64,000 nt of DNA. It comes from Candidatus Xenobia bacterium (lineage in GTDB: Bacteria > Vulcanimicrobiota > Xenobia > Xenobiales > QWHO01). Position numbers and translations under genes: made by a program. Location of the stretch: assembly GCA_045863235.1 (NCBI GenBank), contig BTUM01000026.1, forward strand, positions 1 to 64,000, written 5' to 3'. The stretch's first letter is position 1. The number at the start of each line of letters is the position of its first letter. Of the stretch, positions 19,560 through 60,833 are shown in pieces. Under the pieces are notes generated by a model. It had not been told where the DNA came from. It saw only the letters and a list, made by a program, of their open reading frames with translations, and did no database searches.

Positions 19560-20774
19560 TCAGCGGTCGCCGTGCTGCGTCAGCTGGCCGGCCGGGGTCT
19601 TGCGACTGTCCCAGCCTGAGTCATCCACCGTCTCGACGGCCCGGATATATTTCTGGAAGTCGCTCAGGGACATCTTTTTCTGCTCGCCCCAGGTGTTGAG
19701 GATGACCTGCGGGTCAGCCCCGCTCTTGTCCAGCCCCACCACCAGAATCTTGTGGCCGGGCACGCTCGCGGTGACCGTGCGCCCGCGAGCCAGGTCGTCC
19801 TCCATGTACTGGATCAGGGTGCTGCGATTGCTGCCCACGGTCGTGTCGTTGGTGTAGCCCTGGTTGGGGAAGACCCGGTTGAGGGCCTGCAGCACTTCCC
19901 CTGAGGTGCGCCCGTCAGCATCCTTGTCGGTGGAGTCGTAGCCACCCCAGTGCCCGCTCAGAAGCGAGGTGCACGAGCCCATCAGCGAGTCGGAGAGGTA
20001 CTTGACCGTGAGGCTGCGCTGGTCGTCGGTGCCCTTCTTGTGGGAGTCGTTGCGCTCCAGAGTGCTTCCGTCCGGCATCCTGGTCGACCCCTTCGTGTGC
20101 AGCTCGGTGAGGCAGCGCACGTAGGAGTCGGGATCTTCGATGGCCCACTTCATCTGCACCGAGGTCATGGTGCAGGTTCCCTTGTCCTTCTGGTTGATGT
20201 CGGAGGGGATGGCCAGATCGTGCAGGATGTCCTTCATCAACTGCTGGTTGGGCTCGGCGTTGCCCTGCTTTTGATAAAAGTCGCGCAGCCGGCCCAGGGC
20301 CTGCTCGGCCTTCTCGGGGCCGAGCCTGGAGCGGATCTTGTCGATGTAGCTCAGGTGGCGCGGGTCAGAGAGCTGATCGCGCTCGAGCAGATCGAGCAAC
20401 CCCTTTGTGTGCTCGCTCTTGCCGGTGAGCCGACCCTCGAGCTCGGCCCGGTTCTTGACGGTGGCGGGATCGTTGAAGGGCTCTCGGTGGCTCTTCCAGA
20501 CCTCGTCGTAGGGAGGCTTCTTCTTGGAAGCGTCCGTGAGCCCGCCGGTCAGGGCCGACAGCCAGGGCAGCTCGTCGCCCTCCTCGGACAGACTGGGCGA
20601 CTCAAAGCCGTCCCGCGCGATGCTCGGCTCGGAACTCGCACGGCTCTGAGTGCTCCCTCCGGTGGCCCGGGCCGAGGCCGCCGACGGGGCCGTCGAAGGA
20701 GCGGGAGCGGTGGATTCGGTGCGCTTGCTGGAAACGGACTCGACCGAGCGGGTGGGTTCGGGAGGTGCAGCCAT
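19560..20774 (-). CDS. papain-like (C39/C1-related) cysteine protease domain protein with disordered N-terminus
   Basis: INQKDKGTC (Gln...Cys), GHKILVVG (His), ILNTWG (Asn) in papain-fold order. Confidence 0.65.
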   Translation of the reverse strand: MAAPPEPTRSVESVSSKRTESTAPAPSTAPSAASARATGGSTQSRASSEPSIARDGFESPSLSEEGDELPWLSALTGGLTDASKKKPPYDEVWKSHREPFNDPATVKNRAELEGRLTGKSEHTKGLLDLLERDQLSDPRHLSYIDKIRSRLGPEKAEQALGRLRDFYQKQGNAEPNQQLMKDILHDLAIPSDINQKDKGTCTMTSVQMKWAIEDPDSYVRCLTELHTKGSTRMPDGSTLERNDSHKKGTDDQRSLTVKYLSDSLMGSCTSLLSGHWGGYDSTDKDADGRTSGEVLQALNRVFPNQGYTNDTTVGSNRSTLIQYMEDDLARGRTVTASVPGHKILVVGLDKSGADPQVILNTWGEQKKMSLSDFQKYIRAVETVDDSGWDSRKTPAGQLTQHGDR

Positions 20775-20905
20775 ACCCCTAACCTACCCGACCCGGGCTC
20801 GTCCGGACCTCGAAAGTCGTTACAAAAATGTTGCTCAGATGAGCAAAGTGTGTACATTTTGATCGGCAGGGAGCCAGACGGACCTCTGCGAATTCGCCTG
20901 GTGCA

Positions 20906-21577
20906 ATGCTGGCGGGGGGGACGTTTCGCAGCCTTGGATGGTCGGGCGACCAGTGCCCGATCTGCAAATCCGTCCAGCCCTTCCACTTTCTGGGCGAGCC
21001 GCGTAAGAAAGAGGTCTGGCGCCAGTGCGGCACCTGCGGGGTGCCCATCCAGGTCACCGAGGAGTTACGCGGCAAGCTCTACAACAACCGCCGCGACGCC
21101 GAGCGCAGCGTGCAGACGCTGGCATCCATGGACAACCAGGTGCGCCTGCGCCCACCCGAGGAGAATCGTCTGGGCGCCATTCGCGACGCCTTCCAGCTGC
21201 TGGCCCCCCTGATGCGCATGCGACGACGGCCCCGATGGGACGAGCGCACCCGCCGCAGCGCCTGGATCACCCTGGTGGGCAGCGCGCTGGTGCTGCTGCT
21301 GGCCTCGCAGCTGGCCGCCACCACGGCCAGCAACCTGGTGGTGGCCCTGGTGATCCTCCTGCCCCTGGCGGGAGTCATCGTCACGGTCTACTTCTTTCTC
21401 AATGCCCCTCGCCGCTTTGCCAGCACTCACATCGCGGGGTGGCTGGGCCGGGCCCTGCGCTCCCTCAAGCCGACCTCCCCCGAGATCGACCAGGTGCTGC
21501 AAGAAGGCAAAGCGAGCGGAGAGCCGATCTACCGGCTGGTCACCGTCAAGATGCTGGCCCGCAAGCTCAAAAGGTAA
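20906..21577 (+). CDS. zinc-ribbon membrane protein
   Basis: CPIC...CGTC plus two TM helices. Confidence 0.7.
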   Translation: MLAGGTFRSLGWSGDQCPICKSVQPFHFLGEPRKKEVWRQCGTCGVPIQVTEELRGKLYNNRRDAERSVQTLASMDNQVRLRPPEENRLGAIRDAFQLLAPLMRMRRRPRWDERTRRSAWITLVGSALVLLLASQLAATTASNLVVALVILLPLAGVIVTVYFFLNAPRRFASTHIAGWLGRALRSLKPTSPEIDQVLQEGKASGEPIYRLVTVKMLARKLKR

Positions 21578-21597
21578 GGCCTCGACCTGTTGCCAAA

Positions 21598-21783
21598 TTG
21601 CACTCCTTCGGCGCGGAGCCCCATCTCTGTCCGGGCTCCATCCTGGCCCGTCAAGAGGCGATGCTGGCCCTGAAAGCCCTGCTCGAGCGCTTTCCAAGCC
21701 TGCGGCTCGACCCCGAAGGCCCTTCCTGCTTCATCCATCAAGCCGGAATGCTCGACCCCGGCTCTTTGCCGATTTGTTTCTGA
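21598..21783 (+). pseudogene. cytochrome P450 C-terminal remnant
   Basis: HSFGAEPHLCPGSILARQEAMLALKALLERFPSLRL matches the heme-ligand FGxGxHxCxG-L-helix segment; no upstream P450 body. Confidence 0.75.
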
Positions 21784-21874
21784 GAACTTTCAGGGTGGCT
21801 TGGTAGCCTGGGCTTGACTCGGAAAATGCATGCCATGCGCCGAGGGCGCTGGCAGAAGAGGGAGACCCAACAGC

Positions 21875-24169
21875 ATGAAGGTGCAGCAGTTCCAGATCGG
21901 CGATCTCGCCCTTGATCCCAAGCGCGTCAACGCCCAGACCATCGAGACGCTGGGCAAGCGGGCCAAGGAGCTCTCTGACGTGGAGGGCTCGGGAGATACG
22001 GTCAAGCTGCTGAGGAAATGGTACAAGGAAGGCGAGATCAGCGAAGACGAGTACGCCGCCATCAAGAAGTTCGGCACCGCCGCCAACAAGGTCAAAGGCG
22101 AGCTGAACGACCAGTGGTGGGACGCCAAGAAGGGCTCGGGCGGCGAGGAGAAGATGGCCGAGCTCGACGCCAAGATGCTGCCCTTCCGGGTCTTCCTGCA
22201 TACCCAGTACAGCGTAAGCGACGCCCTGCGCGAGGCCCAGGGGAGAGCCCTGGTGGCCAGCATCGCGGGCGCCTCCTTCGGCCCCATCGGCACGGTGGCC
22301 GCCTATGCCGCCTGGAACGACCTCAAGGGCGATGCCGCCAAGGCGGTCATCGACACCATGAAGGGTCTCGAGTCGGGCGACAGCCCCATGATCGTGCCGG
22401 GCAACAAAGTGCAGCAGGTCCACCAGGAGAAGCTCTGGCCGGCGGTCATGAGCCTGCTCGAAGAGGGCCTGGAAGCGGCCAAGAAGGGCAAGCCGGTGGA
22501 GGTGGACGCTCAGTACTACGAGCTGACCTCGGCCGACGTGCTGGGCAAGATGCGCGAGATCGCCGAGGCCGGCGGCCCCCTGCGCGTCAACCTCGACCCC
22601 GCCTTGCGGCTCACCTACCCCGACGACAAGGGCCAGTTCGACGTGGACGACGTGCCCCACAAGTTCCGCTCCATCCTGCAGCTGACTCAGCTGTGCCAGC
22701 AAGAGCACCTGAACGTGGGTGTGTCCATGTTCCCCGCCTCCAAGCTGCTGGAGGATTCGGGCAACCTGATGCACCGCAAGATCCTGCGGGTGGGCGACAA
22801 GGTGCTCTTCTCAGGCATGAACGCCAACCTGGGCTCGGGCGAGAACGTGGATGCCGGCTACATCGTGGAGGGTCCGGCCGCCCGCCGGTTGACCGAGAAC
22901 CTCAAGCGCGACTGCGAGAACTCGCTGGGCGTGAGCAGCCAGGAGATCTTCGGCGAGAACCACTACAAAGAGTGGGCCGAGGCCCCCATGGTCATGGGCA
23001 CCCGCGGCCTGACAGCCATCCTCGACTGCTTGCAAGGGGTAGAGCCGGCCGGCAAGGAGATGGCCCCCGTCAAGAGCTGGCCCGAGCTCAACGAGCGCTG
23101 CGACAAAGCTGGCGTCGACCTGACCAAGTTCTTCGACATCCCCGAGGAAGAGTTCCTGACCCGCATGCAGGGCCTGCTCGAAGGCGAGAAGCTGCCCCTC
23201 TCGGCCCACGGCAAGGAGATGTGCGGCAAGCTCTTCGAGATGACCATGGATGCCATCAACAACGCCGGCAACCAGAAGCGCGCCGCCGACATCAAGCCAC
23301 CCAAGGGCGACCCGAAGGGCGACACGGTGGTAGCCATCGCCGACCTGCCCGCCGAGCGCGAGGCGATGATGCTGCACGCCATCAGCCAGGCAGAGAAGTT
23401 TGTCTATCTGCCGGGCTTCGTGGTGACGCGCGGCGTGGCCGCCGCCATCGCCGCCCGCGCAGAAGAGCTGAAGGCCCAGGGCAAGACCCTGGACGTCAAG
23501 GTCATCGCCGATCCGGGCGTCTATCCCCGCGGCGACACCCCCAACTCGTGGGGCGTCAAGTTCCTCGAGGACAAGGGCATCGTGCCGCGCTGGGCTCTGC
23601 TCCAGCGCAGTGGCTGGCACGACCGCAAGATCCACGCCAAGCAGCTCATCACCGACAAGCACGAGATGTTCGGCAGCACTAACTTCTCCAAAAAGGGCAT
23701 GCAAGACAACTGGGAGACCTCGGGCCTGGTCACCTTCGACGAGAAGGACCCCGACTCGATCCGCAACCGCGAGGAGTCGGTGCGCGGCTTCCTGCACCTT
23801 TGGGAGAACGAGACCTTCGAGCTCAACTCGATCGACCTGGCCAGCGCCTGGAAGAATCGGGTCAAGACCGAAGACAAGCCGGCCCAGGTCGAGGAAGCGC
23901 GCAACGGCGCCATCAAGAAGATCATCCAGCAGATCGAGCTGGTGGAGGAAGAGAGTGCCCGCTGGATGGAGCGCCAGGCGGCCGACCCCAAAATCGCGAG
24001 CCGCATCGAGGAGCTGAAGGCCGAAGGCTACGCCGAGGGCTACGCCATCTGCGACGGCGTGCGCGACGTGCTGGGCGACGAGAAGTACTATGGAGAGCTG
24101 GCCAAGCTGCCCGAGCGCCAGAAGCTCGAGCAGATGAGGCCCCGCATCCGACCCTCGGCGGAGGAATGA
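21875..24169 (+). CDS. phospholipase D superfamily protein (two HKD-type motifs)
   Basis: HRKILRVGD...GMN and HAKQLITD...GSTNF...N; no signal peptide. Confidence 0.85.
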   Translation: MKVQQFQIGDLALDPKRVNAQTIETLGKRAKELSDVEGSGDTVKLLRKWYKEGEISEDEYAAIKKFGTAANKVKGELNDQWWDAKKGSGGEEKMAELDAKMLPFRVFLHTQYSVSDALREAQGRALVASIAGASFGPIGTVAAYAAWNDLKGDAAKAVIDTMKGLESGDSPMIVPGNKVQQVHQEKLWPAVMSLLEEGLEAAKKGKPVEVDAQYYELTSADVLGKMREIAEAGGPLRVNLDPALRLTYPDDKGQFDVDDVPHKFRSILQLTQLCQQEHLNVGVSMFPASKLLEDSGNLMHRKILRVGDKVLFSGMNANLGSGENVDAGYIVEGPAARRLTENLKRDCENSLGVSSQEIFGENHYKEWAEAPMVMGTRGLTAILDCLQGVEPAGKEMAPVKSWPELNERCDKAGVDLTKFFDIPEEEFLTRMQGLLEGEKLPLSAHGKEMCGKLFEMTMDAINNAGNQKRAADIKPPKGDPKGDTVVAIADLPAEREAMMLHAISQAEKFVYLPGFVVTRGVAAAIAARAEELKAQGKTLDVKVIADPGVYPRGDTPNSWGVKFLEDKGIVPRWALLQRSGWHDRKIHAKQLITDKHEMFGSTNFSKKGMQDNWETSGLVTFDEKDPDSIRNREESVRGFLHLWENETFELNSIDLASAWKNRVKTEDKPAQVEEARNGAIKKIIQQIELVEEESARWMERQAADPKIASRIEELKAEGYAEGYAICDGVRDVLGDEKYYGELAKLPERQKLEQMRPRIRPSAEE

Positions 24170-25327: not shown

Positions 25328-25423
25328 ATGGAAGCGAACTATTTGATCAAGCAGGTGCTGGGCTCGACCGTGGTGATCGGCCTGTTTTTCCTGGTGCTGT
25401 GGTATTTCCGGAAGGCACGATGA
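25328..25423 (+). CDS. 31-aa single-TM small protein (not in the ORF track)
   Basis: MEANYLIKQVLGSTVVIGLFFLVLWYFRKAR; GGGAG upstream; stop overlaps the next start (ATGA). Confidence 0.65.
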   Translation: MEANYLIKQVLGSTVVIGLFFLVLWYFRKAR

Positions 25424-27009
25424 TCTCCGCCGTCCAGCGGCCCTTCTCTGCCCCTGTTGCCAGCGTGGGCGACTTCTATGAGCGCTCCCTGCATCAGCTG
25501 AAGTCCGCTCCCTACGGCGACCAGAGGGACGCGGTGGGAGAGAAGGTCTTGCAGGAGCTGGCCCGGCAGCCTGGTCTGGCCGAGGTGGCCCGCGCCGGCC
25601 AGCGCTGGGGCCTGGCCCAGGACGACTATGCCCTCAAGCAGCTGCTGGAGATGGTCCGCCAGGGCGAGCGCGACCTGCGCAAACTGGCCAGCTCCTGCAC
25701 ACCGTTGATGGCGCCCTTCTCGGTGAAACGACAGCAGCTGGAGGAGTTCGCCTCAGACTCTGAGGTGGGCTGGCTGGGGCGACTGGGCGGCCAGTTGTGC
25801 GATGCCACCAGGAGCGAGAACCTGAAGGAAACGATCTGGAGGGATGCGCTCTGGCAGCCGGCCGATTCCAGCCCGCTCCAATTCGTGTGGCTGCTGAACA
25901 CACATATGAAGTACACCAGCCTGGCCGAGAAGAACGCCATGGCCGAGCCGATCTTCGAAGCCATGCGCGAGCATCCGACGGACCGCTGGGTGGTGGAGGC
26001 ATTGGAAGAGTGGGAGCTGACCCTGGACTGGCCCACTCTCGAAAAGGGGCTCGACTGCTGGAGCAAGGGTCCCGACGACCTGGCCCGCAAGGTGACTCCC
26101 GAGGTGGCCTTTGCGGTGCAACAAAAGCAGCTGGCCCGCCTGCCGGTCGCGCAGGCGGTGCACGCCGCCGTGACGACGCCCGAGAAGAAGAAGGTTGCCT
26201 GGTCGATGGCCCTGAGCGCTACCGAGGAACAATTCGTGAAGCGCTACGTGGGATATCACTACTCCACCAGCCAGGCGGAGGACCAGGCCGTCTTCGAGGC
26301 CGTCCGACCCGTCCTGCAGAACACGATGTCGGGCCAGCTGCTGGAGCGTTGGGGTCTCACCAGCTTGCAGGCCCTGAAACTGGCCGTGAGTCAGCCGCAG
26401 CCTGCGGATACCTGGCAGTTCGCGCTGGGAGCCACCTCGGCCGCCGACAACGTGGCTCAGGAGCGCCAGCTGGCGGAGCTGGACGCCCCTACCGGCAGAC
26501 TGGCCAGCCAGCTCTTTCCCGCCCTGAACTCCGACCAGCGCCATAAAGTCTGGCAACAGGCCGTTCGAGGCCGCGATTCGGACGAGGACCAGGCGCGCAC
26601 CGTGCTGCTGGGCGCCCTGAGCGCGGCCGGGGTGAACGAAGGGCAATCGTTGCCCCTGGTAAGCGCATTCTGGCAAGATTTCGAGTCCACCAGCGAACAG
26701 GTCGCACACGTGCAGAGGCTGCACCGCATTGCGCGGGGGGAAGGGCTTCAGTTTGTTCTGGAGCAGCTGCTCGCTCGCCCCATCATGAGCGACCGGCTGC
26801 GAGAGGACCTGACGGCCCTGCGCGGGCAGGCGGTCGGCTGGGACCAGCTCAAGCCTCTGCTCGAGCGCATGAAGCAGGAAGCCAAAGAAGAGGACTTGAT
26901 TCGCCATATGGCTCGCGAGCGCGATCCAGGCGCGGGAATCAAGGAAGAGCCCGACGCGGTGCGGGTGGGAGGAATTCGTTTGCCCAAGCGAGGGACCGGC
27001 GCGGTCTGA
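25420..27009 (+). CDS. hypothetical helical-repeat protein
   Basis: 530-codon ORF; recurring RWGL/EWEL and QL..L...W..A(L/V) units; C-terminus VRVGGIRLPKR. Confidence 0.75.
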   Translation: MISAVQRPFSAPVASVGDFYERSLHQLKSAPYGDQRDAVGEKVLQELARQPGLAEVARAGQRWGLAQDDYALKQLLEMVRQGERDLRKLASSCTPLMAPFSVKRQQLEEFASDSEVGWLGRLGGQLCDATRSENLKETIWRDALWQPADSSPLQFVWLLNTHMKYTSLAEKNAMAEPIFEAMREHPTDRWVVEALEEWELTLDWPTLEKGLDCWSKGPDDLARKVTPEVAFAVQQKQLARLPVAQAVHAAVTTPEKKKVAWSMALSATEEQFVKRYVGYHYSTSQAEDQAVFEAVRPVLQNTMSGQLLERWGLTSLQALKLAVSQPQPADTWQFALGATSAADNVAQERQLAELDAPTGRLASQLFPALNSDQRHKVWQQAVRGRDSDEDQARTVLLGALSAAGVNEGQSLPLVSAFWQDFESTSEQVAHVQRLHRIARGEGLQFVLEQLLARPIMSDRLREDLTALRGQAVGWDQLKPLLERMKQEAKEEDLIRHMARERDPGAGIKEEPDAVRVGGIRLPKRGTGAV

Positions 27010-29031: not shown

Positions 29032-31353
29032 CTAGCGGACTCCCGCCCCTTCCGTCTGGATCCGCAGCAGTCGCTGGTAAGCCGGGCTCGACTCGCGCAG
29101 CTCGGCCATGCGCTCCTCGCCCAGCGCTTCCATGGTGGCGTAGCCACGGGGGAACCCATTGCGGACTTGCTCTTCGATCCGGTAGCGCAGCTGCGGGTTC
29201 TGCTTCACCTCATCCTGCACCCGCGCTCCCACATCCTCCTCGTAGGCCTGGATGCCGCGCAGGAAGCTGCGGGTGACCCGGTTGCGATAGCTGTCGCGCA
29301 GCAATTCGCCCTCGGCCCCCTGGCGGTCGCCGTACTTCTGCTCAGCCAGGGCGCGCGTGTCCAGGGCCAGCGACTCGCGATTCCAGAGCCGATCGAAGTC
29401 GCCGTTCACCTCCTCGAGCTTGGCTGCCGAATCGGGGCCGTCGTCAAAGAAGGTCAGGTCGGACATCTCCCAGTTGTCGCGCAAGCCCTTGTGCGAGAAG
29501 TTGGTGCTGCCGGTGAGCATCATCTTGTCGGTCAGGATCATCTTGGCGTGCACCTTGCGGTCGTGGTCGCCGTCGGTGCGGTCGAGCACCGCCCAGCGCA
29601 CCGGCACGCCTCGATCCTCCAGCATTTTGAAGGATTTCTCGTTGGGCGTGCCGCCGTACTGGTACATCCCCGGATCGAGCACCACCTGCACCTCGAACGG
29701 TTTGCCCTCGGCCTGCATCCGATCGCGCTTGTCCGCGAGCAAGCGCGCCATGTCGGCGTTGAGCACGAAGGCCGACACCTTGACGAACTTGTCGGCCGAG
29801 TCGATGGAGTGCAGGATCAGCGCCTGGCGCTCGGCCGAGGTATCGCCCACGGCCACGGTATCCGCCCCCGTGGCGGCCTCCGAGGGCGGACGCGAGGTCT
29901 GCAGCTTCTGCAGATTGGCCGGAGCGTTCATGCGACCCACCGCTTGCTCGAGCCCGTCGGCGAGCAGGGTGCGACCTTTCTGGGTGAGGGTGACCCCGCC
30001 TCGGCCCTCGAGCAGGAAGGCCCGCTCGTCGGCCGGGCTGACCTTGCCATCCCCATCGGCATCGGGGATCTCAGCCAGCTGGCCGATGGTGACGCCCTGA
30101 TAGCCGGCCGACTCGATGGCCCGGTCGACCCGCTCGGCCTGAGTCATGCCGCCCCGCGGCGGCACCCCCGTCTGGGACTCGAGCAGGTCGAGCAGGCCGC
30201 GCCGCTGCACCTTGACGGGCAGCTCGGAGGTGCGCAGTTCGTCGAGCTGGGTGCCGTAAATTTCCTCCACGCCCCGGCCGGCCGAGAGCTCCACATCGCG
30301 CTGGAATCCCTGGCTCAGTTTGGTGGCGGCCGGCCCTCGAATGGTGGTGGCGAAGTCCACGTTCTCGCTGGAGCTGGCGTTGGAGTTCATGCCCCCGAAG
30401 ACGGTGTCGTCTCCCACCCGCAGCAACTTGCGGTGCATGATCTCGGCCCGGGCCCCCAGAACTTCTTTGTTGGCGAAGAGTTGAACCGCCGCCTGGCCCT
30501 GCGAGCCCACTTCCAGCCGACGGGTCGCGTTCAAGCGCGCCGTCAGGCTGGTGGCGTCGAGCTCCTCGCCCTGCTTGGAGAGCGTGCCGGCGTCGAGCAG
30601 CACGCGAACGTTGGCGCCACCACGAGAGGCGCGCGAGAGCTTCTCGAGCATCTCGGGGCTGGCCATCTCGTAGTACTGGGCCTCCACCTCGACCGGCTGG
30701 CCGTCGCGCACCGGGTTCTTCACCGCCCCGTCGAGCAGCTCCATCTTCTTGTGCCAGATCTCCTGGCGGGTCAGGGCCTCGACCTGATTGCCCTTCAGCT
30801 TGTAGGGTGAATCGGGCTGCTCCAGGCTGCGGGTGATACGGGCCACCTCCTGCATCTCGCCCACCGGCACGTCGCTGTGCTGAAAGTAGGTCTGCTCGAT
30901 GGGGGTCAAATCGCCCCCGCCCGCCTTCTCCCAGCGCATCTGGCGGGTCATCGCCTGCAGGTGCTCGCGCGCGTCCTGGGTCTGGACGAGCTGCTGGTGG
31001 ACCTCGGCGGCCTCGGCCAGGGGGCCGTTCTTGAGCTCCTTGCGGCGAGCCTTCAGATCGCGCAGGGTAAGGCCGTATTCCTTGTCGCGCCTGCGGGCCT
31101 CGGCCAGACTGGGCAGGGCCTCTTCCGGGTCGGGCAGCTGCAGGGCCAGCTCAGGGCTGGGGGTCGGGGCGGCCGGCTGCTCGTTCTCCCAAGGATACTG
31201 GGCGGCAGCGGTGGTGGCCGTCGGGCCCGCTCCCGCCGTAAAAGTATCCCGGGGCCCCTGAGCTTCCGTGGTGATGGGTGCGGTACGCACCGGAGCCGAC
31301 GACTTCAGGGTCGGCAGGAGCGGAGCCAAGCGGGTATCGCCGAGAACGTCCAC
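29032..31353 (-). CDS. phospholipase D superfamily protein, paralog of 21875..24169
   Basis: HRKLLRVGD...GMN and HAKMILTD...GSTNF; EF-hand-like DADGDGKVSPADE insert. Confidence 0.85.
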   Translation of the reverse strand: MDVLGDTRLAPLLPTLKSSAPVRTAPITTEAQGPRDTFTAGAGPTATTAAAQYPWENEQPAAPTPSPELALQLPDPEEALPSLAEARRRDKEYGLTLRDLKARRKELKNGPLAEAAEVHQQLVQTQDAREHLQAMTRQMRWEKAGGGDLTPIEQTYFQHSDVPVGEMQEVARITRSLEQPDSPYKLKGNQVEALTRQEIWHKKMELLDGAVKNPVRDGQPVEVEAQYYEMASPEMLEKLSRASRGGANVRVLLDAGTLSKQGEELDATSLTARLNATRRLEVGSQGQAAVQLFANKEVLGARAEIMHRKLLRVGDDTVFGGMNSNASSSENVDFATTIRGPAATKLSQGFQRDVELSAGRGVEEIYGTQLDELRTSELPVKVQRRGLLDLLESQTGVPPRGGMTQAERVDRAIESAGYQGVTIGQLAEIPDADGDGKVSPADERAFLLEGRGGVTLTQKGRTLLADGLEQAVGRMNAPANLQKLQTSRPPSEAATGADTVAVGDTSAERQALILHSIDSADKFVKVSAFVLNADMARLLADKRDRMQAEGKPFEVQVVLDPGMYQYGGTPNEKSFKMLEDRGVPVRWAVLDRTDGDHDRKVHAKMILTDKMMLTGSTNFSHKGLRDNWEMSDLTFFDDGPDSAAKLEEVNGDFDRLWNRESLALDTRALAEQKYGDRQGAEGELLRDSYRNRVTRSFLRGIQAYEEDVGARVQDEVKQNPQLRYRIEEQVRNGFPRGYATMEALGEERMAELRESSPAYQRLLRIQTEGAGVR

Positions 31354-32552: not shown

Positions 32553-34010
32553 ATGACCAACGCAGTGGGAGCGCCTCAGGCCCAGAACTTCGTCGCCATC
32601 AACCCCGAGCAGCAGCTCAGGGTGCAGCAGGCCACCGTGCAGGCCAACGGACCCACCCAGGGCGACCCCTGGTCGGGAGTGCAGGCCCGCCGTGCCGCCG
32701 ACGAGCGCCATGACGCCTACCGTGGCATCGTAGGCAACCAGGCCAACGGCCAGACCGCACCCACCAACGCTCCGGCCAGCAAGGGCGCGCTGATGGACAA
32801 GCCCATCGGCCAGATGACCGACGAGGAGCTCAAGCAGGTCTTCGGCAGTGACGCCGACCGCATGAAGGCGCTGGGTGCCAAGCAACCGAACCTGACGGCC
32901 GGCATGCTCCAGCCGCTGCGTAAGGATCCGCAGGGCCTGGACAGCGTGGTGACGATGCTCACCGAGCGCCCCGACCTCAAGTTCGAGGACCTGGTCACCA
33001 AGGACCAGAAGGGCAACATGAACATCAACGGCACCATCCGCGACGAGCGCTCGCGCGAGCTGATGCTGCAGCGCACCGACATCAAGCCGGCCGCCCTCTC
33101 GAGCATGGCCGGCAGCTTCGCCCAGACCCTCAAGCAGCCGGCCCTGGTCAAGGAGGCCTACAATACCTCCCTCGAGCTCTTGAAGACCCGCACCGACGTG
33201 TCCCCGCAGGACCTGGGAGCCTTGATGGGCCGAATGTCCAAGGGCGTCAACCAGAACTCGGCTGGCGGCGGTCAGGAGGGCGGTGGGATGAACGCCGCTG
33301 CCACGCTGGACATGTTCAAGACGGGTGCCCGGCTGATGACCACCCGCCACGACATCGGCGTACAGGACGTGGGCCGGATGTCAGACGCCGTCGCCCAGCT
33401 CGGCGGCAAGAAAGATGACCAGTCGGGCATGAAGATCGCCAACGCCTTCTCACAGGGCGCTGACTTCTTGATCAGCCGCCCCGGCTCGAGCGTCAACGAC
33501 GTGGTCAACCTGGCCGGCACCATCAAGCAGCGCGTTCCCGGCCAGGAGGGAGCTGACGCCGACAACCGGTTCGCCCTGTTCGGCCAGAGCATGCAGCTGA
33601 TGAAGGACATGCCCCAGATGAACGCCGATGGAGTGGCTGCCCTGATCGAGAAGTCGAGCGAGGGCCCGCCGCCGCGCCAGGGCCAGGATCTGGTCAACGC
33701 CTTCAACACCCAGTCCACCAACCTGCTCAACGGGCGGGCCAACGTGGGGCTGGCCACCGACCGCCTGCACCGGCCCGACGCCCAGGGCCAGCGCCGTCAG
33801 GACGGCGAGATCTTGATGGACAAGAATGGACGCGAGAAGGGGGCCACCGGCCCCGCGCTGACGGCCCAGCAGGCTGGCACCGTCAACCAGCCGGTGGCCA
33901 ACGTGCCCGGGCGCAACGGCAATCAGTGGGCCGACAACGGCGTGGTCGACCGGCGTTTTGCGGCGGTGCAGCAGCCGCCCGCTCAGACCTCGTTCAACGC
34001 CCTGGCTTAG
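32553..34010 (+). CDS. hypothetical helical-repeat protein with disordered termini
   Basis: Strong GC3 codon bias; GGAAGGA upstream; recurring L..R.D(I/V)...D(L/V) units. Confidence 0.8.
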   Translation: MTNAVGAPQAQNFVAINPEQQLRVQQATVQANGPTQGDPWSGVQARRAADERHDAYRGIVGNQANGQTAPTNAPASKGALMDKPIGQMTDEELKQVFGSDADRMKALGAKQPNLTAGMLQPLRKDPQGLDSVVTMLTERPDLKFEDLVTKDQKGNMNINGTIRDERSRELMLQRTDIKPAALSSMAGSFAQTLKQPALVKEAYNTSLELLKTRTDVSPQDLGALMGRMSKGVNQNSAGGGQEGGGMNAAATLDMFKTGARLMTTRHDIGVQDVGRMSDAVAQLGGKKDDQSGMKIANAFSQGADFLISRPGSSVNDVVNLAGTIKQRVPGQEGADADNRFALFGQSMQLMKDMPQMNADGVAALIEKSSEGPPPRQGQDLVNAFNTQSTNLLNGRANVGLATDRLHRPDAQGQRRQDGEILMDKNGREKGATGPALTAQQAGTVNQPVANVPGRNGNQWADNGVVDRRFAAVQQPPAQTSFNALA

Positions 34011-42214: not shown

Positions 42215-43552
42215 ATGGAGATCACCGGCACCGCTCAGAGCTACCATATCTACCATCCCCGCTCGGCCGCCCAGTCCGGCGCTACGCCCCTGACCCCGGG
42301 CCTCTGGCAGACCCAGTTGCAGAAGCTCGTCGGCATCTTGCAGGGCGGTCCAGAGCCCAGCCCTACCCCGCCTGTGGCCAAAGTGGAAGGGCGCGACGGC
42401 AGAGTGCTGGGCGAGAAGAATTTTCTCAAAGCCGACCAGTATCCCGGCCTGCACAGCAAGAGGCTGCAAGACAAGCGCACCAGCAATCCTCAACCGCTCA
42501 TCGAGGGGGCGCCCAACTATCGCGAGTTGGGCGAGGGCATCCACGGCACCGCCCAGCCCACCGTGGACGGGATGCGGCGCGTGCTCGAGCAGGCCGGAGC
42601 CGGACCCGACGGCGAGAAGAAGGCGGTCTGGACCAACATGCGCGAGGAGCCGGTGGTCTACATCAACGGCCAGCCCTTCAACCTGCGCCACGTCAAAGCG
42701 CCCTTCTACAACCAGGCCTCGCCGGGCCGCTCGGCCGGCGAGGTGGAGAAGATGGAGCGCGACCTCAAGCAGGACGTGCTCAACGAGGCGCGCCGAAACG
42801 GCGGCATGATCACCCTGCACGACGAGGAGGCCGGGCCTCCGCCCAGAGTGGTCGAGAAGCAGGTCAAAATCGAGAGTGTGCAGACCGTCTCGGAGGTCTA
42901 CGACCAGCTCAAGGCCGAGGGCTACAAGGTGGACTACCAGCGCATCCCGGTCACCGACATGAAAAAGCCCGAGGACCAGGACATCGACGAGCTGGTGGGG
43001 GCGCTCAAGAAGGCCGATCCAGAGGCGGCGCTGATCTTCAACTGCCACGCCGGACAGGGACGCACCACCACGGCCATGGTGCTGGCCAGCCTGATGAAGC
43101 GGGCCTCCGCGGGCGAAGAGGGGGATCTGCTCAAGGACCCCGCCGTGCGGGCCGACATCAAGGAGCAGGGTAAGCACACCCCCAGCAACTACCGCGAGAT
43201 CCTGCGCAGCTTCAAGGACGCCCGCAAGCTGGTGCAGGATCAGGACAGCGTGGACAAGGTGGTGGAGAAGTACGGCGACGTGCACGACCTCAAGAAGGCG
43301 GTGGGCAAGGCCCGCCAGGAGGCGCATGCGGCTGACACGCCCGAGGAGAAACAGGCAGCGCGCGAGCGCGTCTCGGACTACCTCGAGCGCTACCACACCC
43401 TGGTCTCGTTCGAGGCCTACGCGCGCGAGCAGGGGCCCGACTTCAAGCTCCCCTACTCGGAGTGGAAGAGCCGCAACCCGGAGCTGGAAGAGGGCCTCAA
43501 GCGCGTCCAGTTGGCCCTGGCGGGGCGCGGTCAAGAGTCTCAGGTCGCTTGA
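42215..43552 (+). CDS. PTP-like (paladin/PTP-phytase family) phosphatase
   Basis: GAPNYR, GTAQPT, WTNMREEPVVYING, YQRIPVTD, FNCHAGQGRTTT (CX5R), YLERY. Confidence 0.9.
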   Translation: MEITGTAQSYHIYHPRSAAQSGATPLTPGLWQTQLQKLVGILQGGPEPSPTPPVAKVEGRDGRVLGEKNFLKADQYPGLHSKRLQDKRTSNPQPLIEGAPNYRELGEGIHGTAQPTVDGMRRVLEQAGAGPDGEKKAVWTNMREEPVVYINGQPFNLRHVKAPFYNQASPGRSAGEVEKMERDLKQDVLNEARRNGGMITLHDEEAGPPPRVVEKQVKIESVQTVSEVYDQLKAEGYKVDYQRIPVTDMKKPEDQDIDELVGALKKADPEAALIFNCHAGQGRTTTAMVLASLMKRASAGEEGDLLKDPAVRADIKEQGKHTPSNYREILRSFKDARKLVQDQDSVDKVVEKYGDVHDLKKAVGKARQEAHAADTPEEKQAARERVSDYLERYHTLVSFEAYAREQGPDFKLPYSEWKSRNPELEEGLKRVQLALAGRGQESQVA

Positions 43553-44444: not shown

Positions 44445-46148
44445 TCAGCTCGGGTTGGGCACCTCTTCCGGCTTCTCGTCGGGCTTCTGCTCGGGCTTCT
44501 GCTCGGGGGCAGGGGTCTCTTCAGGCTTTTTTTCTTCCTTTGCAGGCGCCTCGGCGGCCTGCCGCATGGCCTCCTGCAGAGCTTTGAGAACGTCCTGGTT
44601 GGCCGCCACCGGCTTGCCGCGGTCGAGAGCCATCAAGATGGCTTCGTGCGGGTCCACCATCCCGGCGCCCTGATGGTTCTTGGGCACCCGGCCCGGCAGC
44701 GGGTCGGCGGAGCTCTTGAGGATCTCTTTCACCTCGTCGGGGGTCAGGTCGGGGTTGGCTTCCAGCATCTCAGCCACCACGCCGGCCACGATGGGCGTGG
44801 CCATCGAGGTGCCCGGCATTCCCACGTAAGCCTTGTCGGGCGAGAGCGGCATGCGGGATGTGACCCGCAGCAGCCGGTTGAACTCGTTCTTGGCGGTCTC
44901 GCCGCCTTCGCGAATCTTGCCCATGGTCTCGGGGCCGATGCCCATCAGGGCAAACTGCGAGTCGGGCACTCGGGCCAGCTCTTCGGCCGGGAGGCTCGAG
45001 AGCCACTTCACCGTGCCGTGCACCACCTGGAAGCGAGCCGCCTGGGCCTCCGAGCTGGTACCCGGGGAGAGTGGGGCCATGATGGCCTCGCCGGGCGCGA
45101 CCAGGTCGGGCTTGCTGGCCCCGTACTTGGTGGGACCGCGGCTGGAGAACTCGGTGATCGAGTCATCGCCCGGGTCGGGGGTATTCTGATCGTCCACCGC
45201 TCCCACCGTGATGGCGTGAGGACTGTCTCCCGGGGCTTTGACGGTCTTGCGATCGGGGCCGTCGTTGCCGGCCGCGGCCACCACCACCAGGCCCGCCTCG
45301 TAGGCCTTCTGCACCGCCTGGTCGACCGGATCGTCCTGATATTTCTTGCGGGCCGTGTGGCCGAGCGACAGGTTGATCACCCGGATGCCCAGGCGGTCCT
45401 TGTTCTCGATGCAGAACTGGATGCCCTTGATGATGTCGGAGGTCTTGCCCGAGCCGTCCTCGCCGAGCACCTTGACGCCCACCAGGTGGGCCTTGGGGGC
45501 CGGTCCGCGGTAGATGCCGCCGCTCAAGAGGCCGCTGCCGGCGGCGTCGCCGGCCACGTGGGTGCCGTGCCCGTGGTCGTCATAGGGAGTGGAGCGCCCG
45601 TTCACCATGTCGGCGAAGGCCACCAGGCGGTTGTAGGGGGTGTTGAAGTCGGGGTGAGGATAGATGCCCGTATCCAGGATGGCGATGCCCACGCCCTCCC
45701 CCTGGAACTTGCGGGTGAGCGGCGTGTCGAAGCGAGGAGCGAGCTGGGGCAGGCGCGACTTGAACTCGGGCTCCTTCTTGGTCTCGGCCTCCTTCTTCTC
45801 GGCCGCTTCCTCTTCTTCGTCCTTGGGCGAGGGGTCCCACGGCATCGGAGGCAGGTAGCGGTCCTGCTGGTCGAGATGGACGCGGTAGCCCTGCTTCTCG
45901 AGATCTTTGACCTGCTTGTCGGTCAGGTCGGCCAGCACGCCGCCGATGAGGCCGAGCTCTTCCTTGACCTTGATGCCCAGGTCGACGAGCTGGATCTTGG
46001 AGGTGGTCTTGAAGATGCCCTCTTCGGGCGCAACCAGGATGTAGGACTTGGTCGGGGTGGAAGGGGCGGACAGGTCCATCCGATCCAGCCCGATGGTCGA
46101 CCTCTGCGCGGGGGTTCGGGTAGAGGTCGAGAGCCTGGCTGCGTCCAT
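44445..46148 (-). CDS. S8 subtilisin-like serine protease (AprX-like)
   Basis: IAILDTG, HGHGTHVAG, AAGNDG, FSSRGP, GTSMATP; AAGGAG RBS; no signal peptide. Confidence 0.93.
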   Translation of the reverse strand: MDAARLSTSTRTPAQRSTIGLDRMDLSAPSTPTKSYILVAPEEGIFKTTSKIQLVDLGIKVKEELGLIGGVLADLTDKQVKDLEKQGYRVHLDQQDRYLPPMPWDPSPKDEEEEAAEKKEAETKKEPEFKSRLPQLAPRFDTPLTRKFQGEGVGIAILDTGIYPHPDFNTPYNRLVAFADMVNGRSTPYDDHGHGTHVAGDAAGSGLLSGGIYRGPAPKAHLVGVKVLGEDGSGKTSDIIKGIQFCIENKDRLGIRVINLSLGHTARKKYQDDPVDQAVQKAYEAGLVVVAAAGNDGPDRKTVKAPGDSPHAITVGAVDDQNTPDPGDDSITEFSSRGPTKYGASKPDLVAPGEAIMAPLSPGTSSEAQAARFQVVHGTVKWLSSLPAEELARVPDSQFALMGIGPETMGKIREGGETAKNEFNRLLRVTSRMPLSPDKAYVGMPGTSMATPIVAGVVAEMLEANPDLTPDEVKEILKSSADPLPGRVPKNHQGAGMVDPHEAILMALDRGKPVAANQDVLKALQEAMRQAAEAPAKEEKKPEETPAPEQKPEQKPDEKPEEVPNPS

Positions 46149-46392: not shown

Positions 46393-47313
46393 CTATCTCA
46401 GGCGCTGGAGACCGTTGATCAACTCGATCAGCTTCTGCACTTCCGAGCCCAGGAACTCACCGTCGGTTTGGACGCGGCTCTTGATCTCGGTCAGGGTGGC
46501 CTGGTACACGACCGCCTGCAAGCCGGGCTCGGAAAGCTCCTTACCGGTGTCCAGGGCGGTGCGGGTCAGGTCGGTCAGGGTGTCGAGATAGGCGCGCACG
46601 GCTTCGCGCGGCAACCCGGAGGCGTTCTCATCCACTCTTGATGGGAGAGTCAGCACTTGCTCCAGGGCCGCCTTGTAGCCCTCGGCCTTGACCTGGTCGA
46701 AGATTCCCGCCGGACCCAGGGGCGTGGCCTCGATCGCGTCGCCCACCTTCAGGGCGCTGCGGGCCACCTCTTGATGGCGACGGGCGGCACCGGGCAGATT
46801 CTCGCCCTCGGCGATCTGCTCCAGGGCCGACTCCATGGCCTGGTTCATGCGGGCCGGATCGCCCCCCAGCTTGTACTCCGCCAGCCCCTTCTGGGCCCAC
46901 TCGGCGATGCTGGGAACGTCCGAGGCGGCCAGCCGGGTCAGCACCTGCTGGTAGTAACCCGAAGAGAGCATCTGGCGCGCTTCGGTCTGCTTGCCGTCCT
47001 TGACCAGCTGGCTGACGCGCGAAGCGAGCGAGGTCACATTGGTGCTCTCGCCCGGGGGCGGAGGCGGCGGGTCGGTGGGACCCCCGCAGCCGGAGAGCAC
47101 CCCGCCCAGCACCAGCGCCAGTCCCACCCCGCCGGCCAGGCGCAGGCCCAGGGAGCGAGCCGGCTCGGCCTGACCCTCGGCCTTGCGGGGCAGCGGCACC
47201 GGAGGTGCCGGGCCCAGCTCGACCTGATCGGGAGCGACTTCGCCGTGAAAGGGAGCCTGGAGGCTGGCGCCGGTAGGCCGTTGAGGAAGATACGAGCCGG
47301 GGGAGATGATCAT
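46393..47313 (-). CDS. hypothetical protein with internal signal-peptide/lipobox-like segment
   Basis: About 50-aa Pro-rich leader, then RSLGLRLAGGVGLALVLGGVLSGC, then a helical domain. Confidence 0.7.
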   Translation of the reverse strand: MIISPGSYLPQRPTGASLQAPFHGEVAPDQVELGPAPPVPLPRKAEGQAEPARSLGLRLAGGVGLALVLGGVLSGCGGPTDPPPPPPGESTNVTSLASRVSQLVKDGKQTEARQMLSSGYYQQVLTRLAASDVPSIAEWAQKGLAEYKLGGDPARMNQAMESALEQIAEGENLPGAARRHQEVARSALKVGDAIEATPLGPAGIFDQVKAEGYKAALEQVLTLPSRVDENASGLPREAVRAYLDTLTDLTRTALDTGKELSEPGLQAVVYQATLTEIKSRVQTDGEFLGSEVQKLIELINGLQRLR

Positions 47314-47501
47314 AGCCCTCTGATCCTGGCTCAAGTGCCTGAAAGGAAGCTGAATTGTCGCCCCTCCTGACGTCGCAAACTTCGTCGCCCTGACCGTGCC
47401 ACGAAACCTGCAACCGCTTCCCAGGCAGGGCGGTGCGGGTTGCAACGCGTTCGCAACTGACAGGGCCCAGACTCCAACCACTTGATGTGGGAGGTTCGTA
47501 T

Positions 47502-52336: not shown

Positions 52337-52337
52337 G

Positions 52338-55221: not shown

Positions 55222-55233
55222 AGCTTCTCCTCC

Positions 55234-56004: not shown

Positions 56005-56007
56005 AGG

Positions 56008-56451: not shown

Positions 56452-56490
56452 CAAAGCCGTGGGTTCCCTCCACTTCTCAAGCTTGAGGGC

Positions 56491-56543: not shown

Positions 56544-56636
56544 CCTTTCTCCAGGGGACCTGGGGAGTCTAATCGATCGAAGCAGAACTGGCAAGGAGCG
56601 AGGTGGAGAAGCGCAAGCCTGACCCGGCCGAAGGAG

Positions 56637-58951: not shown

Positions 58952-59239
58952 ATGCAAGAAACCATCGACGTCCCCATCTGTGTGTCCCGGGTCGTTCCCT
59001 TCGAGCCGCTGGAAGGGAGCAAGGCCCTGGCGGCCGTGCTGTTGACCGTCGGGCCGTTGTCGGTCTGGTGCCGGATCTTTGTGGACCCCAAAGGCCAACC
59101 TTTCCTGTCGATGCCCTCGCGCAAGGGGAAGGAGGACCGCTACTACCAGGCGGCCTACTTCTCCGACCGTCGCTTCCATGAGCAGGCCGAGCGCCTGGCT
59201 GTCGAGGCCTACCGCAAGAGCGACATCTCCAACAACTGA
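58952..59239 (+). CDS. SpoVG-like nucleic-acid-binding protein
   Basis: KALAAVLL...RIFVDPKGQPFLSMPSRK..DRYY...AVEAY matches the SpoVG FvaMPSRk pattern; AAGGAG RBS. Confidence 0.75.
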   Translation: MQETIDVPICVSRVVPFEPLEGSKALAAVLLTVGPLSVWCRIFVDPKGQPFLSMPSRKGKEDRYYQAAYFSDRRFHEQAERLAVEAYRKSDISNN

Positions 59240-59324
59240 TGGGTTGAGCGTTCCGTGCTGAAGGTTTTGCCTCTCCTTCGGCAACGACAAACCCGCAGCA
59301 CTTCACGATATCCATTAGTCAGGT

Positions 59325-59356
59325 AGGGCGCGCCCCCTGCGGGGCGCGCCCTTTCC
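59325..59356 (+). terminator. probable intrinsic terminator
   Basis: AGGGCGCGCCCC-CTGC-GGGGCGCGCCCT 12-bp stem followed by a short T run. Confidence 0.65.
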
Positions 59357-59393
59357 AGGTTCTTTCAGCCTCGGGTGCGAATCTTAGCCGACA

Positions 59394-60833
59394 GTGAACA
59401 TCCCTCATCGCACTCCCCCCACCCGAGTCCACCTGGTCACCTGGATGGACGCCACCGAGGCCGTCATCGAGCCGATGGCGGTGGATAGCCTCAACAGCAT
59501 CGAAGACGCCCGGGCCATCGCGGGCAACCAGTTCACCGGGGAGATGATGCTCGAGCGCAAGGTCATGCCGTTCGGTCGAAAGATGGCCACGGGGGTGGTC
59601 AAACTGGGAGCGCTGGTGGCAGCCGGAGCGAGCGTGGCTCTGGGCGCGGGCCTGGCCATAAGCGGGAGTCCGCTGCTGGGGCTGGGACTGGCCGCCGCCG
59701 GAGCGGGCGTGATCCACAAATTTGGCACCTCCCTCTTCCTGCGGGGCGCCGGGCACGTCTACTCGGCAATGCTGGGCAGAAAGATGGCCGAGCCCGCCTG
59801 GAGCGGCGTGCGCACCTACGAGGTGACGGCCAACACCTCCAAGGCGCTCGACTCCAGACTGGTGTCCGAGAAACCTCTCGAGACCAGGCGCGACCTGCCT
59901 TCCATCAGCGACTTTCTGGCCAACGGAATGAAAAAGTATCCCAAGGAAGACATCACGGTCGTGCACATGATGGGTCACGGGCTGGGCTATCGCCAGACGG
60001 CCGGATTGCCTTACCAGGAGTATCGGACGGTGGTGGACGAGACGGTGCAGAAAGCCGGCCGTCCCATCGACGTGCTGTTGCTCGAGTCGTGCCTGGAAGG
60101 CAACCTCGAAGCCGTGGCCGGCATCGGGGACAGGGCACGCTTCGTGCTGGTCAGCCAGGAAACCATCAATGCCGGGGCCGTGGGGGAGCTGCTCTTGAGC
60201 ACGACCGCTCGCACTACCGGCACGACCTTCACGCCCGAGAAGTGGGGCAAGACCATGGTGGAGTCAGCCCGGGTCATGGGCGGATCCTCCCAGCCCGAGA
60301 CGCTGGCCCTGGTGGATACCCGGAAACTGCCCGCGGTCACGCAAGCCCTGGACGAGCTGGGGGCTCTGCTGCAGGCCGAGGTCGGCTCCAACGCCGAGGC
60401 CCTGACCGCGGCCGTGAAGGCCACCCAGCTCTATCCCAAGGATTGGCCCCACCGCTCCACCGGCGAGAAACTGGGGATGGGCGACCTGGGCCACTTCTGT
60501 CGCAATCTGCAGCGGGTCTACATGGGGAAGTCGATCACCCGGAAAAGCGGCCTGGGGCCCTTCAAGTCACAAACCGACGTCTCGTTTCCACAGGCCGCCG
60601 CCTCGCCGCGCGCGGCCGCCATCCTGGAGGCGGCCGTGAAAGTGCGCGAGCTGGTGGACGAAGCGGTCGTCGCGCGCCACACCGTGCAGCGCTATGACGA
60701 GGCCTGCGGCCTCTCGGTGCAGCTCCCCACCAGCTCGCTGGCGCGCCTCGACAAGAAGTTCATGCCTTTTGCCGACAGCGCGGCGCCGCCAAACTGGCAG
60801 GGTTTCGTGCGTACCATGAGCGCCCGGGTTTGA
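59394..60833 (+). CDS. clostripain-like (C11) cysteine peptidase
   Basis: FLANGMKKYP...HMMGHGLG (His-Gly), IDVLLLESCL (Cys), VSQET, TLALVD, GLSVQLP; internal hydrophobic hairpin. Confidence 0.75.
   Translation: MNIPHRTPPTRVHLVTWMDATEAVIEPMAVDSLNSIEDARAIAGNQFTGEMMLERKVMPFGRKMATGVVKLGALVAAGASVALGAGLAISGSPLLGLGLAAAGAGVIHKFGTSLFLRGAGHVYSAMLGRKMAEPAWSGVRTYEVTANTSKALDSRLVSEKPLETRRDLPSISDFLANGMKKYPKEDITVVHMMGHGLGYRQTAGLPYQEYRTVVDETVQKAGRPIDVLLLESCLEGNLEAVAGIGDRARFVLVSQETINAGAVGELLLSTTARTTGTTFTPEKWGKTMVESARVMGGSSQPETLALVDTRKLPAVTQALDELGALLQAEVGSNAEALTAAVKATQLYPKDWPHRSTGEKLGMGDLGHFCRNLQRVYMGKSITRKSGLGPFKSQTDVSFPQAAASPRAAAILEAAVKVRELVDEAVVARHTVQRYDEACGLSVQLPTSSLARLDKKFMPFADSAAPPNWQGFVRTMSARV

Follow-up and report, generated by a model that had tools for sequence, protein, structure and literature searches.

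The stretch of DNA analysed here, hereafter the window, comprises the 64,000 nucleotides at positions 1-64000 of contig C26 in the draft genome of a Candidatus Xenobia bacterium (G000; 8.36 Mb, 65.8% GC, 97.6% complete). Homologues of one of its conserved genes bear the names Ca. Eremiobacterota, Vulcanimicrobiota, Ca. Xenobium and Ca. Bruticola and thereby assign the genome to Xenobia; no 16S primer site was detected. Between positions 19560 and 60833 the window carries nine dispersed genes that a first-pass annotation, made from the letters of the window, had proposed to encode effectors of an undescribed export pathway. Our analysis indicates that their products probably belong to a much larger class of signal-less proteins, and that a flagellar-type type III machine encoded elsewhere in the genome likely exports them. 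All nine open reading frames (ORFs) are present with the starts previously assigned:

19560..20774, minus strand: cysteine-protease-like orphan, papain-like, 404 aa; no other of the nine has so polar a leader; candidate cargo.
21875..24169, plus strand: PLD1, phospholipase D family (PF13091), 764 aa, without a low-complexity leader.
25420..27009, plus strand: hypothetical protein 25420, 529 aa, with an ordinary leader and a C-terminal tail motif.
29032..31353, minus strand: PLD2, phospholipase D family (PF13091), 773 aa, with a polar leader.
32553..34010, plus strand: hypothetical protein 32553, 485 aa, with a Q/A/N-rich leader and three paralogues.
42215..43552, plus strand: PTP-like phytase (PF14566), with the CX5R motif at residues 277-283 and a polar leader.
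44445..46148, minus strand: subtilase (PF00082), 567 aa, AprX-like by source labels.
46393..47313, minus strand: hypothetical protein 47313, 306 aa, with a motif-bearing leader followed by a hydrophobic segment.
59394..60833, plus strand: clostripain-family protease (PF03415), 479 aa, with a short leader that lacks the motif.

With regard to the enzymatic activities proposed earlier, Pfam supports both PLDs, the CX5R phosphatase, the subtilase and the clostripain, and the phosphatase also shows a sub-cutoff match to the XopH model. For the papain-like protein, sequence comparison with Pfam, NCBIfam and PDB gave no match, and its assignment as a cysteine protease is plausible and unproven. Gln195, Cys201, His341 and Trp362 are invariant in all five aligned homologues. 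The nearest neighbours of its Atlas model are orphan clusters of Myxococcota and Melainabacteria, with template modelling (TM) scores of 0.62-0.77, and the C1, C10 and C39 papain-type peptidases reach only 0.40-0.46.

Signal peptides were scored by a hydropathy scan. An N-terminal hydrophobic signal is absent in nine of the nine proteins, as previously claimed for the six enzymes, and the same scan finds no signal-like N-terminus in 28 of the 29 subtilase matches and 11 of the 11 clostripain matches of the genome. For the window subtilase this absence is weak evidence of export, as 4 of its 120 homologue rows carry an AprX label from a source. AprX is a cytoplasmic enzyme. The low-complexity leaders attributed to the group hold for six proteins: the S/T/P/A/Q content of the papain-like protein, PLD2, 32553, the PTP-like phytase, the subtilase and 47313 reaches at least the 92nd percentile among signal-less proteins. 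The clostripain (69th percentile), PLD1 (31st percentile) and 25420 are ordinary in this respect.

The four similar leader motifs quoted in the first-pass annotation are present, at residue 53 of the papain-like protein, 34 of PLD2, 20 of the subtilase and 27 of 47313. We called 7210 genes in G000 with our own codon model, which also supplied the gene starts, and restricted genome-wide analyses to the 6254 genes encoding at least 100 aa. The D-x-hydrophobic form in which the motif had been worded occurs in 3127 of these 6254 N-termini and therefore has no discriminating power; it was discarded as uninformative. A looser five-residue form gives P=0.013 for four of nine, a value that holds post hoc only. 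When gapped words in residues 6-70 were scanned without bias, D.V.LS (49 versus about 11) and P.D.F.P (18 versus about 2) came out among the top words, beside P-loops and lipoboxes. Unconstrained motif expectation maximization drifted to poly-proline, and an Asp/Glu-anchored position-specific scoring matrix (PSSM), P-x-D-[RQST]-[VF]-[EQVT]-[LP]-[SG], was used instead, with local-composition shuffles as control. This leader motif (short form P-x-D-x-[VF]-x-[LP]-[SG]) is found in 170 of the 6254 proteins versus 24 in the shuffles, and its position peaks at residues 20-40. Protein bodies, used as a further control, give 17/4877 at score 10.

The subtilase and papain-like motifs score low on this PSSM. 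In the papain-like family, D-x-F is kept in three of five homologues and the Asp in all five. Among 120 subtilase homologues, none of which has a signal-like N-terminus, 22 reach a motif score of at least 8 (1.5 expected); the motif stands just ahead of the folded domain, and V-type and F-type forms interchange there. In same-genus orthologues (median identity 70%), alignments inspected by eye show several pairs that retain the motif despite divergence elsewhere in the leader. The idea of an Asp motif acting as a signal thus gains from enrichment beyond chance, from retention in orthologues and from its presence on proteins of the export machine itself, described below, although its original definition was too loose.

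Two features had been overlooked in the first-pass annotation: a C-terminal tail motif and a promoter box. The tail, V-x-[IV]-GG-V-x-[VL]-x-[RK], is found at the C-terminus of 105 proteins of G000 versus one in a mid-protein control, and co-occurs with the leader motif in 19 proteins (odds ratio 8.8, P=3e-11). We take it to resemble encapsulin cargo peptides. Encapsulin targeting was rejected, as family-1 encapsulin (PF04454) has no match in the genome, the controls being positive in three. Upstream of the tagged genes, TTTCAG is enriched and resolves to TTTCAG-N5-TTTCAG-N10-TAnnnT, in most cases 6-9 nt ahead of the start codon. The spacer between repeat and -10 element is 10 in 56 of 59 sites, for a regular expression permitting 9-13. 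A box scoring at least 14 precedes 305 genes of G000. In a held-out test with training on half, 43/97 and 38/97 tagged genes were recovered versus 166 and 164 of 3624 others. Allowing one mismatch, the pattern occurs 104 times in G000, between 17 and 112 times in each of the remaining 16 f1 and f3 genomes, 19-21 times in f4 and 0-6 times in 17 smaller f2 genomes; the reversed pattern gives 0-1 per genome. The elements found in the window are as follows:

20598..20618, minus strand: leader motif of the papain-like protein, F-type, residues 53-59.
21777..21809, plus strand: promoter box of PLD1, direct repeat and -10 element, score 25.5, 65 nt before the start.
26953..26991, plus strand: tail motif of 25420, V-x-V-GG-I-x-L-x-K-R, residues 512-524.
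31237..31254, minus strand: leader motif of PLD2, F-type, residues 34-39, PSSM 7.9, P=0.017 versus shuffles of its own leader.
46068..46091, minus strand: leader motif of the subtilase, residues 20-27.
47086-47139, minus strand: hydrophobic segment of 47313 ending in a lipobox-like LSGC, residues 59-76.
47212..47235, minus strand: leader motif of 47313, V-type, residues 27-34, PSSM 14.0, reached by 0 of 300 own shuffles.
47323..47355, minus strand: promoter box of 47313, score 28.2, the -10 element ending 9 nt before the start codon.
59352..59384, plus strand: promoter box of the clostripain gene, score 24.2, 9 nt before the start.

From this spacing, the 47313 mRNA is predicted to be leaderless or nearly so. 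Class membership of PLD1, in which a motif-like match at residue 41 is doubtful, and of the clostripain, which carries a transmembrane-like segment, rests on the promoter box; three of the ten signal-less paralogues of the clostripain have a strong leader motif. Genome-wide, leader motif, tail and box overlap strongly and nearly exclude signal peptides. Signal-like N-termini occur in 12 of the 305 box genes versus 791 of the 3558 remaining genes that have an intergenic gap, the tail is the tag most tied to the box (43/70), and the union of the three features comprises 451 genes.

A sigma-28 promoter had been our first guess for these genes; the enriched upstream element proved to be the TTTCAG repeat. 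The box presumably resembles the HilA box, a likeness for which we found no supporting paper. Its geometry is that of the pho box bound by PhoB in Escherichia coli, in which a pair of direct repeats, 11 bp in period, ends 10 bp upstream of a TAN3T -10 element (PMC1906773). The repeat sequence differs, however, and the TTTCAG box has about 300 targets. A Pho regulon was rejected: E. coli queries found no pstS or phoU homologue in G000, and the pstA/B/C matches are other ABC transporters without a box. Among 13 PhoB-domain matches, one OmpR-family regulator (C6:55737) has a sub-threshold box (12.3) upstream. This gene and an extracytoplasmic function (ECF)-sigma-like gene with a strong box (C100:26128, score 21) are candidate controllers of the regulon.

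The window itself lacks type III secretion machinery, as noted earlier. A Sec-independent exporter nevertheless exists in the genome, outside the window, in the form of a flagellar-type type III apparatus. The dedicated secretion route proposed at first is thus matched by an existing exporter, which is a repurposed flagellar export gate and not an unrelated pathway. Contig C27 carries, in order, flgB, flgC, fliE, fliF, fliG, fliH, fliI, fliJ, a lytic transglycosylase gene, fliK, a short flgE-like gene, fliM, two fliN, fliO, fliP, two fliQ, fliR, flhB and flhA. The flgE-like gene encodes a 271-aa FlgE/F/G-like protein, and there is no full hook gene. Downstream of flhA stand a conserved gene coding for a helical 104-aa protein, three 81-aa genes identical to one another, and a paralogue of these with 473 aa and a long leader. 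Contig C74 adds flgF, flgG, flgJ and a fliA-like sigma gene. The only full FlhA and the only FliP of G000 are those of the C27 cluster. Homologues of the injectisome core SctJNQRSTUV are all present, yet they score as flagellar equivalogs and pass the flagellar, not the injectisome, NCBIfam cutoffs: FlhA scores 809 on TIGR01398, over the cutoff, and 609 on hrcV, under it. FliE, FlgB and FlgC are all above their NCBIfam cutoffs, and MS/C ring and rod genes (FliEFGMN, FlgBCFG) are present. Flagellin has no match in G000, with positive controls, and E. coli queries of this 97.6% complete draft gave no match for FlgA/D/H/I/K/L/M, FliC/D/S/T/L or MotA/B. The sole MotA/ExbB-family gene sits in tonB-exbD-exbB. 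None of the three secretin matches of G000 lies in the cluster; they belong to type II secretion, to type IV pili and to one weak orphan.

Several further observations concern these contigs. C74:3-302 and C13:3-563 overlap inside one fliA-like gene, and the two contigs are probably adjacent. Five proteins away from the cluster consist of the FlhA cytoplasmic domain only (C80:28012, C3:26973, C1:377631, C106:14866 and C107:13658), C9:5642 encodes another FliF-like protein, and C74:2384 an FlhB-C-like one that stands alone. The export cluster also contains methionine-related genes: in G000, flhA is followed by a gene resembling methionine synthase and by one for an aminotransferase (C27:57483-60701), and in family f14, a MetF-like gene stands between fliP and fliQ (methionine-related genes in loci L016, L018 and L030).

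The cluster is not confined to G000. We surveyed 251 genomes of the phylum, the tallies of FliP, flagellin and the 81-aa family including the unpublished G201, G236, G234 and G221, four genomes on which nothing else here depends. FliP is found in 234 of the 251 and flagellin over the cutoff in 92. In our own cross-tally, 142 of the 159 flagellin-negative genomes keep FliP, and 86 of the 92 flagellin-positive ones have at least two FliP matches. Flagellin is absent in 17/17 f2 and 5/5 f13 genomes, with FliP kept in 16 and 5. The gene order of the cluster recurs in G050, G046, G002, G032, G025, G007 and G014, and G050, G014 and G107 hold a separate motor-bearing cluster with mot, flgD and flgE. 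Family f14 has a reduced cluster without an 81-aa gene beside it. In a tree of 19 FlhA sequences, the FlhA proteins of this system form one clade (support 100/99), apart from the motility FlhA of the phylum and from SctV. The FliP and flagellin counts, the separate motor clusters and the FlhA clade of its own argue that the cluster is not a decaying flagellum. Nor is it a motility flagellum. In Candidatus Eudoremicrobium, the supplement to PMC9259500 shows a full flagellum on one scaffold and second copies of flgB, flgC, fliI and flgG elsewhere; this second set may be the same export system. All five f13 genomes (G009, G015, G020, G025 and G029) have two FliP matches and no flagellin, and may possibly hold a third type III-like set.

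The 81-aa family occurs in 43 of the 251 genomes; in no fewer than 32 of these 43, a copy lies at most about 12 kb from fliP, and 0 of the 79 loci around the gene contain mot, fliC, flgD or flgK. Neither Pfam nor NCBIfam gives a match for the protein, and its structural model has no Foldseek match. The nearest named Atlas clusters are HrpA pilin (0.91/0.90) and HrpE-like (0.88), which we treat as leads only, the HrpA family being assigned on 23-24% of the members of its clusters. The model of the 104-aa protein is a helical bundle whose best fold match is generic (Z 7.4, rmsd 3.7, 71 aligned). The 81-aa domain is also the C-terminal domain of many unrelated-looking proteins. In genus g5 (G046, L021:2483-4332), which is negative with the hidden Markov model (HMM), a diverged 81-aa ORF accompanies two tip-like genes that carry the leader motif in the same place; HMM absence therefore understates the range of the family.

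The longer, tip-like paralogues of the 81-aa protein link this machine to the tagged proteins. A leader motif score of at least 8 is reached by 9 of the 21 such paralogues (0.3 expected; counted among the 21 are two that lie outside the cluster and two whose starts are wrong or cut), and the motif is found on tip-like proteins in at least four families. One 81-aa gene of G000 also has a promoter box (20.4). Five relatives with the full cluster, sampled over 120-400 kb with one gene caller, have the motif in 17 of 1161 genes, with 4.0 expected: 5/283 in G050, 8/266 in G032, 2/314 in G056, 1/142 in G002 and 1/156 in G007. G032 lies outside the taxonomic class of G000. In three f14/f18 genomes without the 81-aa gene, the motif is found in 0/300, 0/162 and 1/99 genes (2.0 expected together). 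For Pfam assignment we used 39 of 47 flagged genes from three relatives, omitting two from f14 and six that were duplicates or likely false. The families assigned to tagged genes include subtilase, M48 peptidase, patatin, PLD and peptidoglycan-binding protein; 24 of the 39 sampled tagged or boxed genes have no Pfam family. Contigs from RNA libraries of four studies cover 81-aa, tip-like, flhA and flhB genes, and near-identical ones from run X1 cover the subtilase, 47313 and clostripain genes. Such contigs show neither transcription, start sites nor level, and they were not used as support.

Taken together, these results lead us to consider it likely that the window proteins belong to a class, several hundred strong, of signal-less tagged proteins that are cargo of a motor-less, flagellin-less type III machine derived from a duplicate flagellar gene set. 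Secretion itself is what we infer from the sequence features. The three outcomes that the first-pass annotation had named as contrary to its proposal, namely a motif no more frequent than in cytoplasmic proteins, true starts downstream of the leaders and a genome without a Sec-independent exporter, were not found. Type III signals are described as polar and variable and as lying in the first 10-25 residues (PMC6140923). In G000, 293 of the 305 box genes are not signal-like, and six of the nine window proteins have polar leaders by composition and hydropathy.

In the mechanism we propose, an OmpR/PhoB-type activator would bind the direct repeat and activate about 300 genes with mostly leaderless mRNAs, along with one 81-aa copy. 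The unfolded polar N-terminus would serve as the export signal, and the Asp motif may form a short beta-strand whose docking site is a chaperone or the export gate (the FlhA/FlhB cytoplasmic domains), the five FlhA-C-only paralogues being possible docking partners. FliI, FliH and FliJ would feed the cargo via FliPQR and a FlgB/C/F/G rod into a conduit of the HrpA-like 81-aa helix, probably capped by the tip-like paralogues. The tail could be a second docking site or an oligomer strand. The phospholipases, proteases, phosphatases and many orphans would then act on a neighbouring cell, likelier a bacterium or other microbe than the medium. A broader proposal, to which we hold only tentatively, is that the Eremiobacterota/Vulcanimicrobiota made a contact-dependent injector from a duplicate flagellum, independently of the injectisome, with rod and C-ring retained and an HrpA-like conduit newly evolved, and that Xenobia use it against microbial prey with 300-450 effectors addressed in two parts, by the leader Asp motif and the GG tail, and controlled by one activator.

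A number of observations weigh against this interpretation. In its model, the 81-aa protein forms a single long helix where SctF has a hairpin, and nothing in the PDB matches it; three loci titled Acidobacteriota, Blastocatellia and Desulfitobacterium (L220, L226 and L230) carry the domain but no export genes. The cluster contains no L/P ring or secretin that would account for passage through the outer membrane. No class I chaperone was found in a CesT search in which the control gave no match either, and no LcrH/SycD match exceeded the cutoff. The motif signal is weak in three of the five relatives (G056, with 1.2 expected, and G002 and G007, with one match each), and some matches in the sampled relatives are not in leaders. 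In the window, 32553 and the PTP-like phytase have a polar leader only: neither the leader motif nor the box was detected in either, and 32553, in which the tail was not detected either, is the weakest class member of the nine. The FlhA tree has just two SctV rows, and its f14 rows sit on a long branch. Gene starts depend on our own caller, the PSSM was trained on G000 itself, and the phylum genomes are kin, so co-occurrence across them is not independent.

Other objections feed particular alternatives. The tagged proteins might stay inside the cell, the box marking a developmental or attack-phase regulon, the leader motif being a degron, chaperone site or assembly tag, and the machine secreting its own parts only. 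Glutamate dehydrogenase, adenosine deaminase and glycosyltransferases are indeed among the tagged or boxed genes of relatives and bear the leader, transporter-like genes occur among the box genes (80/305 have a transmembrane-like segment), the export-gate operon and six of the seven scored full-length 81-aa and tip genes have no box above threshold, and the AprX labels of the window subtilase family fit this picture. The same motif on the tip-like proteins of the machine is difficult to reconcile with it, as are the near-complete lack of signal-like N-termini among the subtilases and clostripains and the nature of some signal-less proteins: a subtilase with a fervidolysin prodomain and a MAM domain, a patatin and a protein with two peptidoglycan-binding domains. 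We regard an intracellular role as unlikely. Somewhat less probable still is export by another route, through type II secretion, a type IV pilus or an unrecognised machine, with the flagellar-type cluster building an adhesive pilus only. Type II and type IV pilus secretins are present in G000, and type II genes start within the window itself:

60957..64000, minus strand: gspF, gspE and the end of gspD (type II secretion), a rival exporter outside the proposed route.

A C-terminal signal is also atypical for type III export, the tail is the tag most tied to the box, and some leaders, such as that of 47313, are followed by a hydrophobic lipobox-like segment. Type II substrates, however, require prior delivery by Sec or Tat, signals for which the tagged proteins lack, and the N-terminal motif is common to these proteins and to those of the cluster. 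Type VI secretion and extracellular contractile injection systems were rejected as no sheath was found in G000, and type IV secretion as no VirB10 was found, with positive controls in both cases; the missing family-1 encapsulin likewise speaks against a further route. Finally, the cluster could encode an organelle for motility or sensing, either an unusual flagellum whose filament and stator escaped recognition or one with genes lost in assembly, and the leaders could be a compositional habit of the lineage. Its export genes pass flagellar cutoffs, FliG, FliM, FliN and rod genes are retained, a FliA-like sigma gene adjoins flgF-flgG-flgJ, and the draft is incomplete. Yet flagellin is missing throughout f2 and f13 while FliP is kept, a complete separate flagellum coexists in relatives, the 81-aa loci contain no mot, fliC, flgD or flgK, and shuffles of local composition fail to reproduce the motif. 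We find this reading improbable, the most so of the three.

Elsewhere in and beside the window, the type II secretion cluster is complete-looking, with gspF, gspE, gspD and pseudopilin and assembly genes continuing on the minus strand of C26 to 70782. Two clusters of minor pilin or PilX-like genes with type IV prepilin-type N-termini lie at 1828-4848 and 17283-19556, a SARP/BTAD-like regulator with 20 paralogues across G000 at 14374-16695, and a Suf Fe-S cluster operon with an Rrf2-type regulator at 50302-56454.

With regard to known systems, the Yersinia phospholipase YplA, a non-flagellar protein, is reportedly secreted through the motility flagellum (a study cited in PMC8109811), and the Cia and Fed proteins of Campylobacter are exported through theirs. 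In these cases, as proposed here, a flagellar gate exports enzymes including phospholipases; they involve a working motor and few extra substrates, whereas the copy described here is dedicated and motor-less. FlgM has a D-x-V-x-L-S stretch. The Hrp injectisome resembles our system in its type III core without flagellin or stator, a small helical multi-copy subunit, HrpA, for which the 81-aa protein is a candidate counterpart, the polar N-termini of its cargo, its PLD, PTP and cysteine-protease activities and one shared promoter box (PMC3459982, PMC6140923). By the injectisome criteria of PMC3459982, the machine falls outside that family because it keeps FliE, FlgB and FlgC and has no secretin in the cluster; FlgF/G, FliG, FliM and FliO are retained as well. 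Its FlhA groups with flagellar FlhA and not with the two SctV sequences, and its cargo shares recognisable leader and C-terminal motifs and numbers in the hundreds. The Myxococcales type III system is, like ours, secretin-less and found in a predator-like lineage, but PMC3459982 places it in the non-flagellar clade, without FlgBC and FliEG, which the present machine retains. The basal body of Buchnera also keeps the export apparatus and rod, has lost fliC and motAB and has been proposed to secrete. According to PMC8109811, however, that organism is a reduced endosymbiont that keeps flgD, flgE, flgK and flgH, and the substrates are not known. The paralogue described here is found across the phylum and can occur beside a full flagellum, in genomes of 6-9 Mb; it has a new candidate filament and an extensive set of predicted cargo. 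In the open-access literature, we found no description of this export system, its tags or its regulon.

If the interpretation is correct, this would be a second, independent transition from flagellum to secretion system, with rod and switch parts retained, and it would extend phylum-wide. Type III signals are usually too variable to read; the leader motif, the tail and the box provide three independent handles for listing cargo, and what a type III gate recognises would become directly testable. Several hundred candidate effectors, most of them orphans, would also become available. PMC9259500 proposes predation for relatives, with a type III secretion row reading 'no decision', and the system would offer a mechanism for that lifestyle. 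Flagellar genes in these genomes should accordingly not be taken to mean motility.

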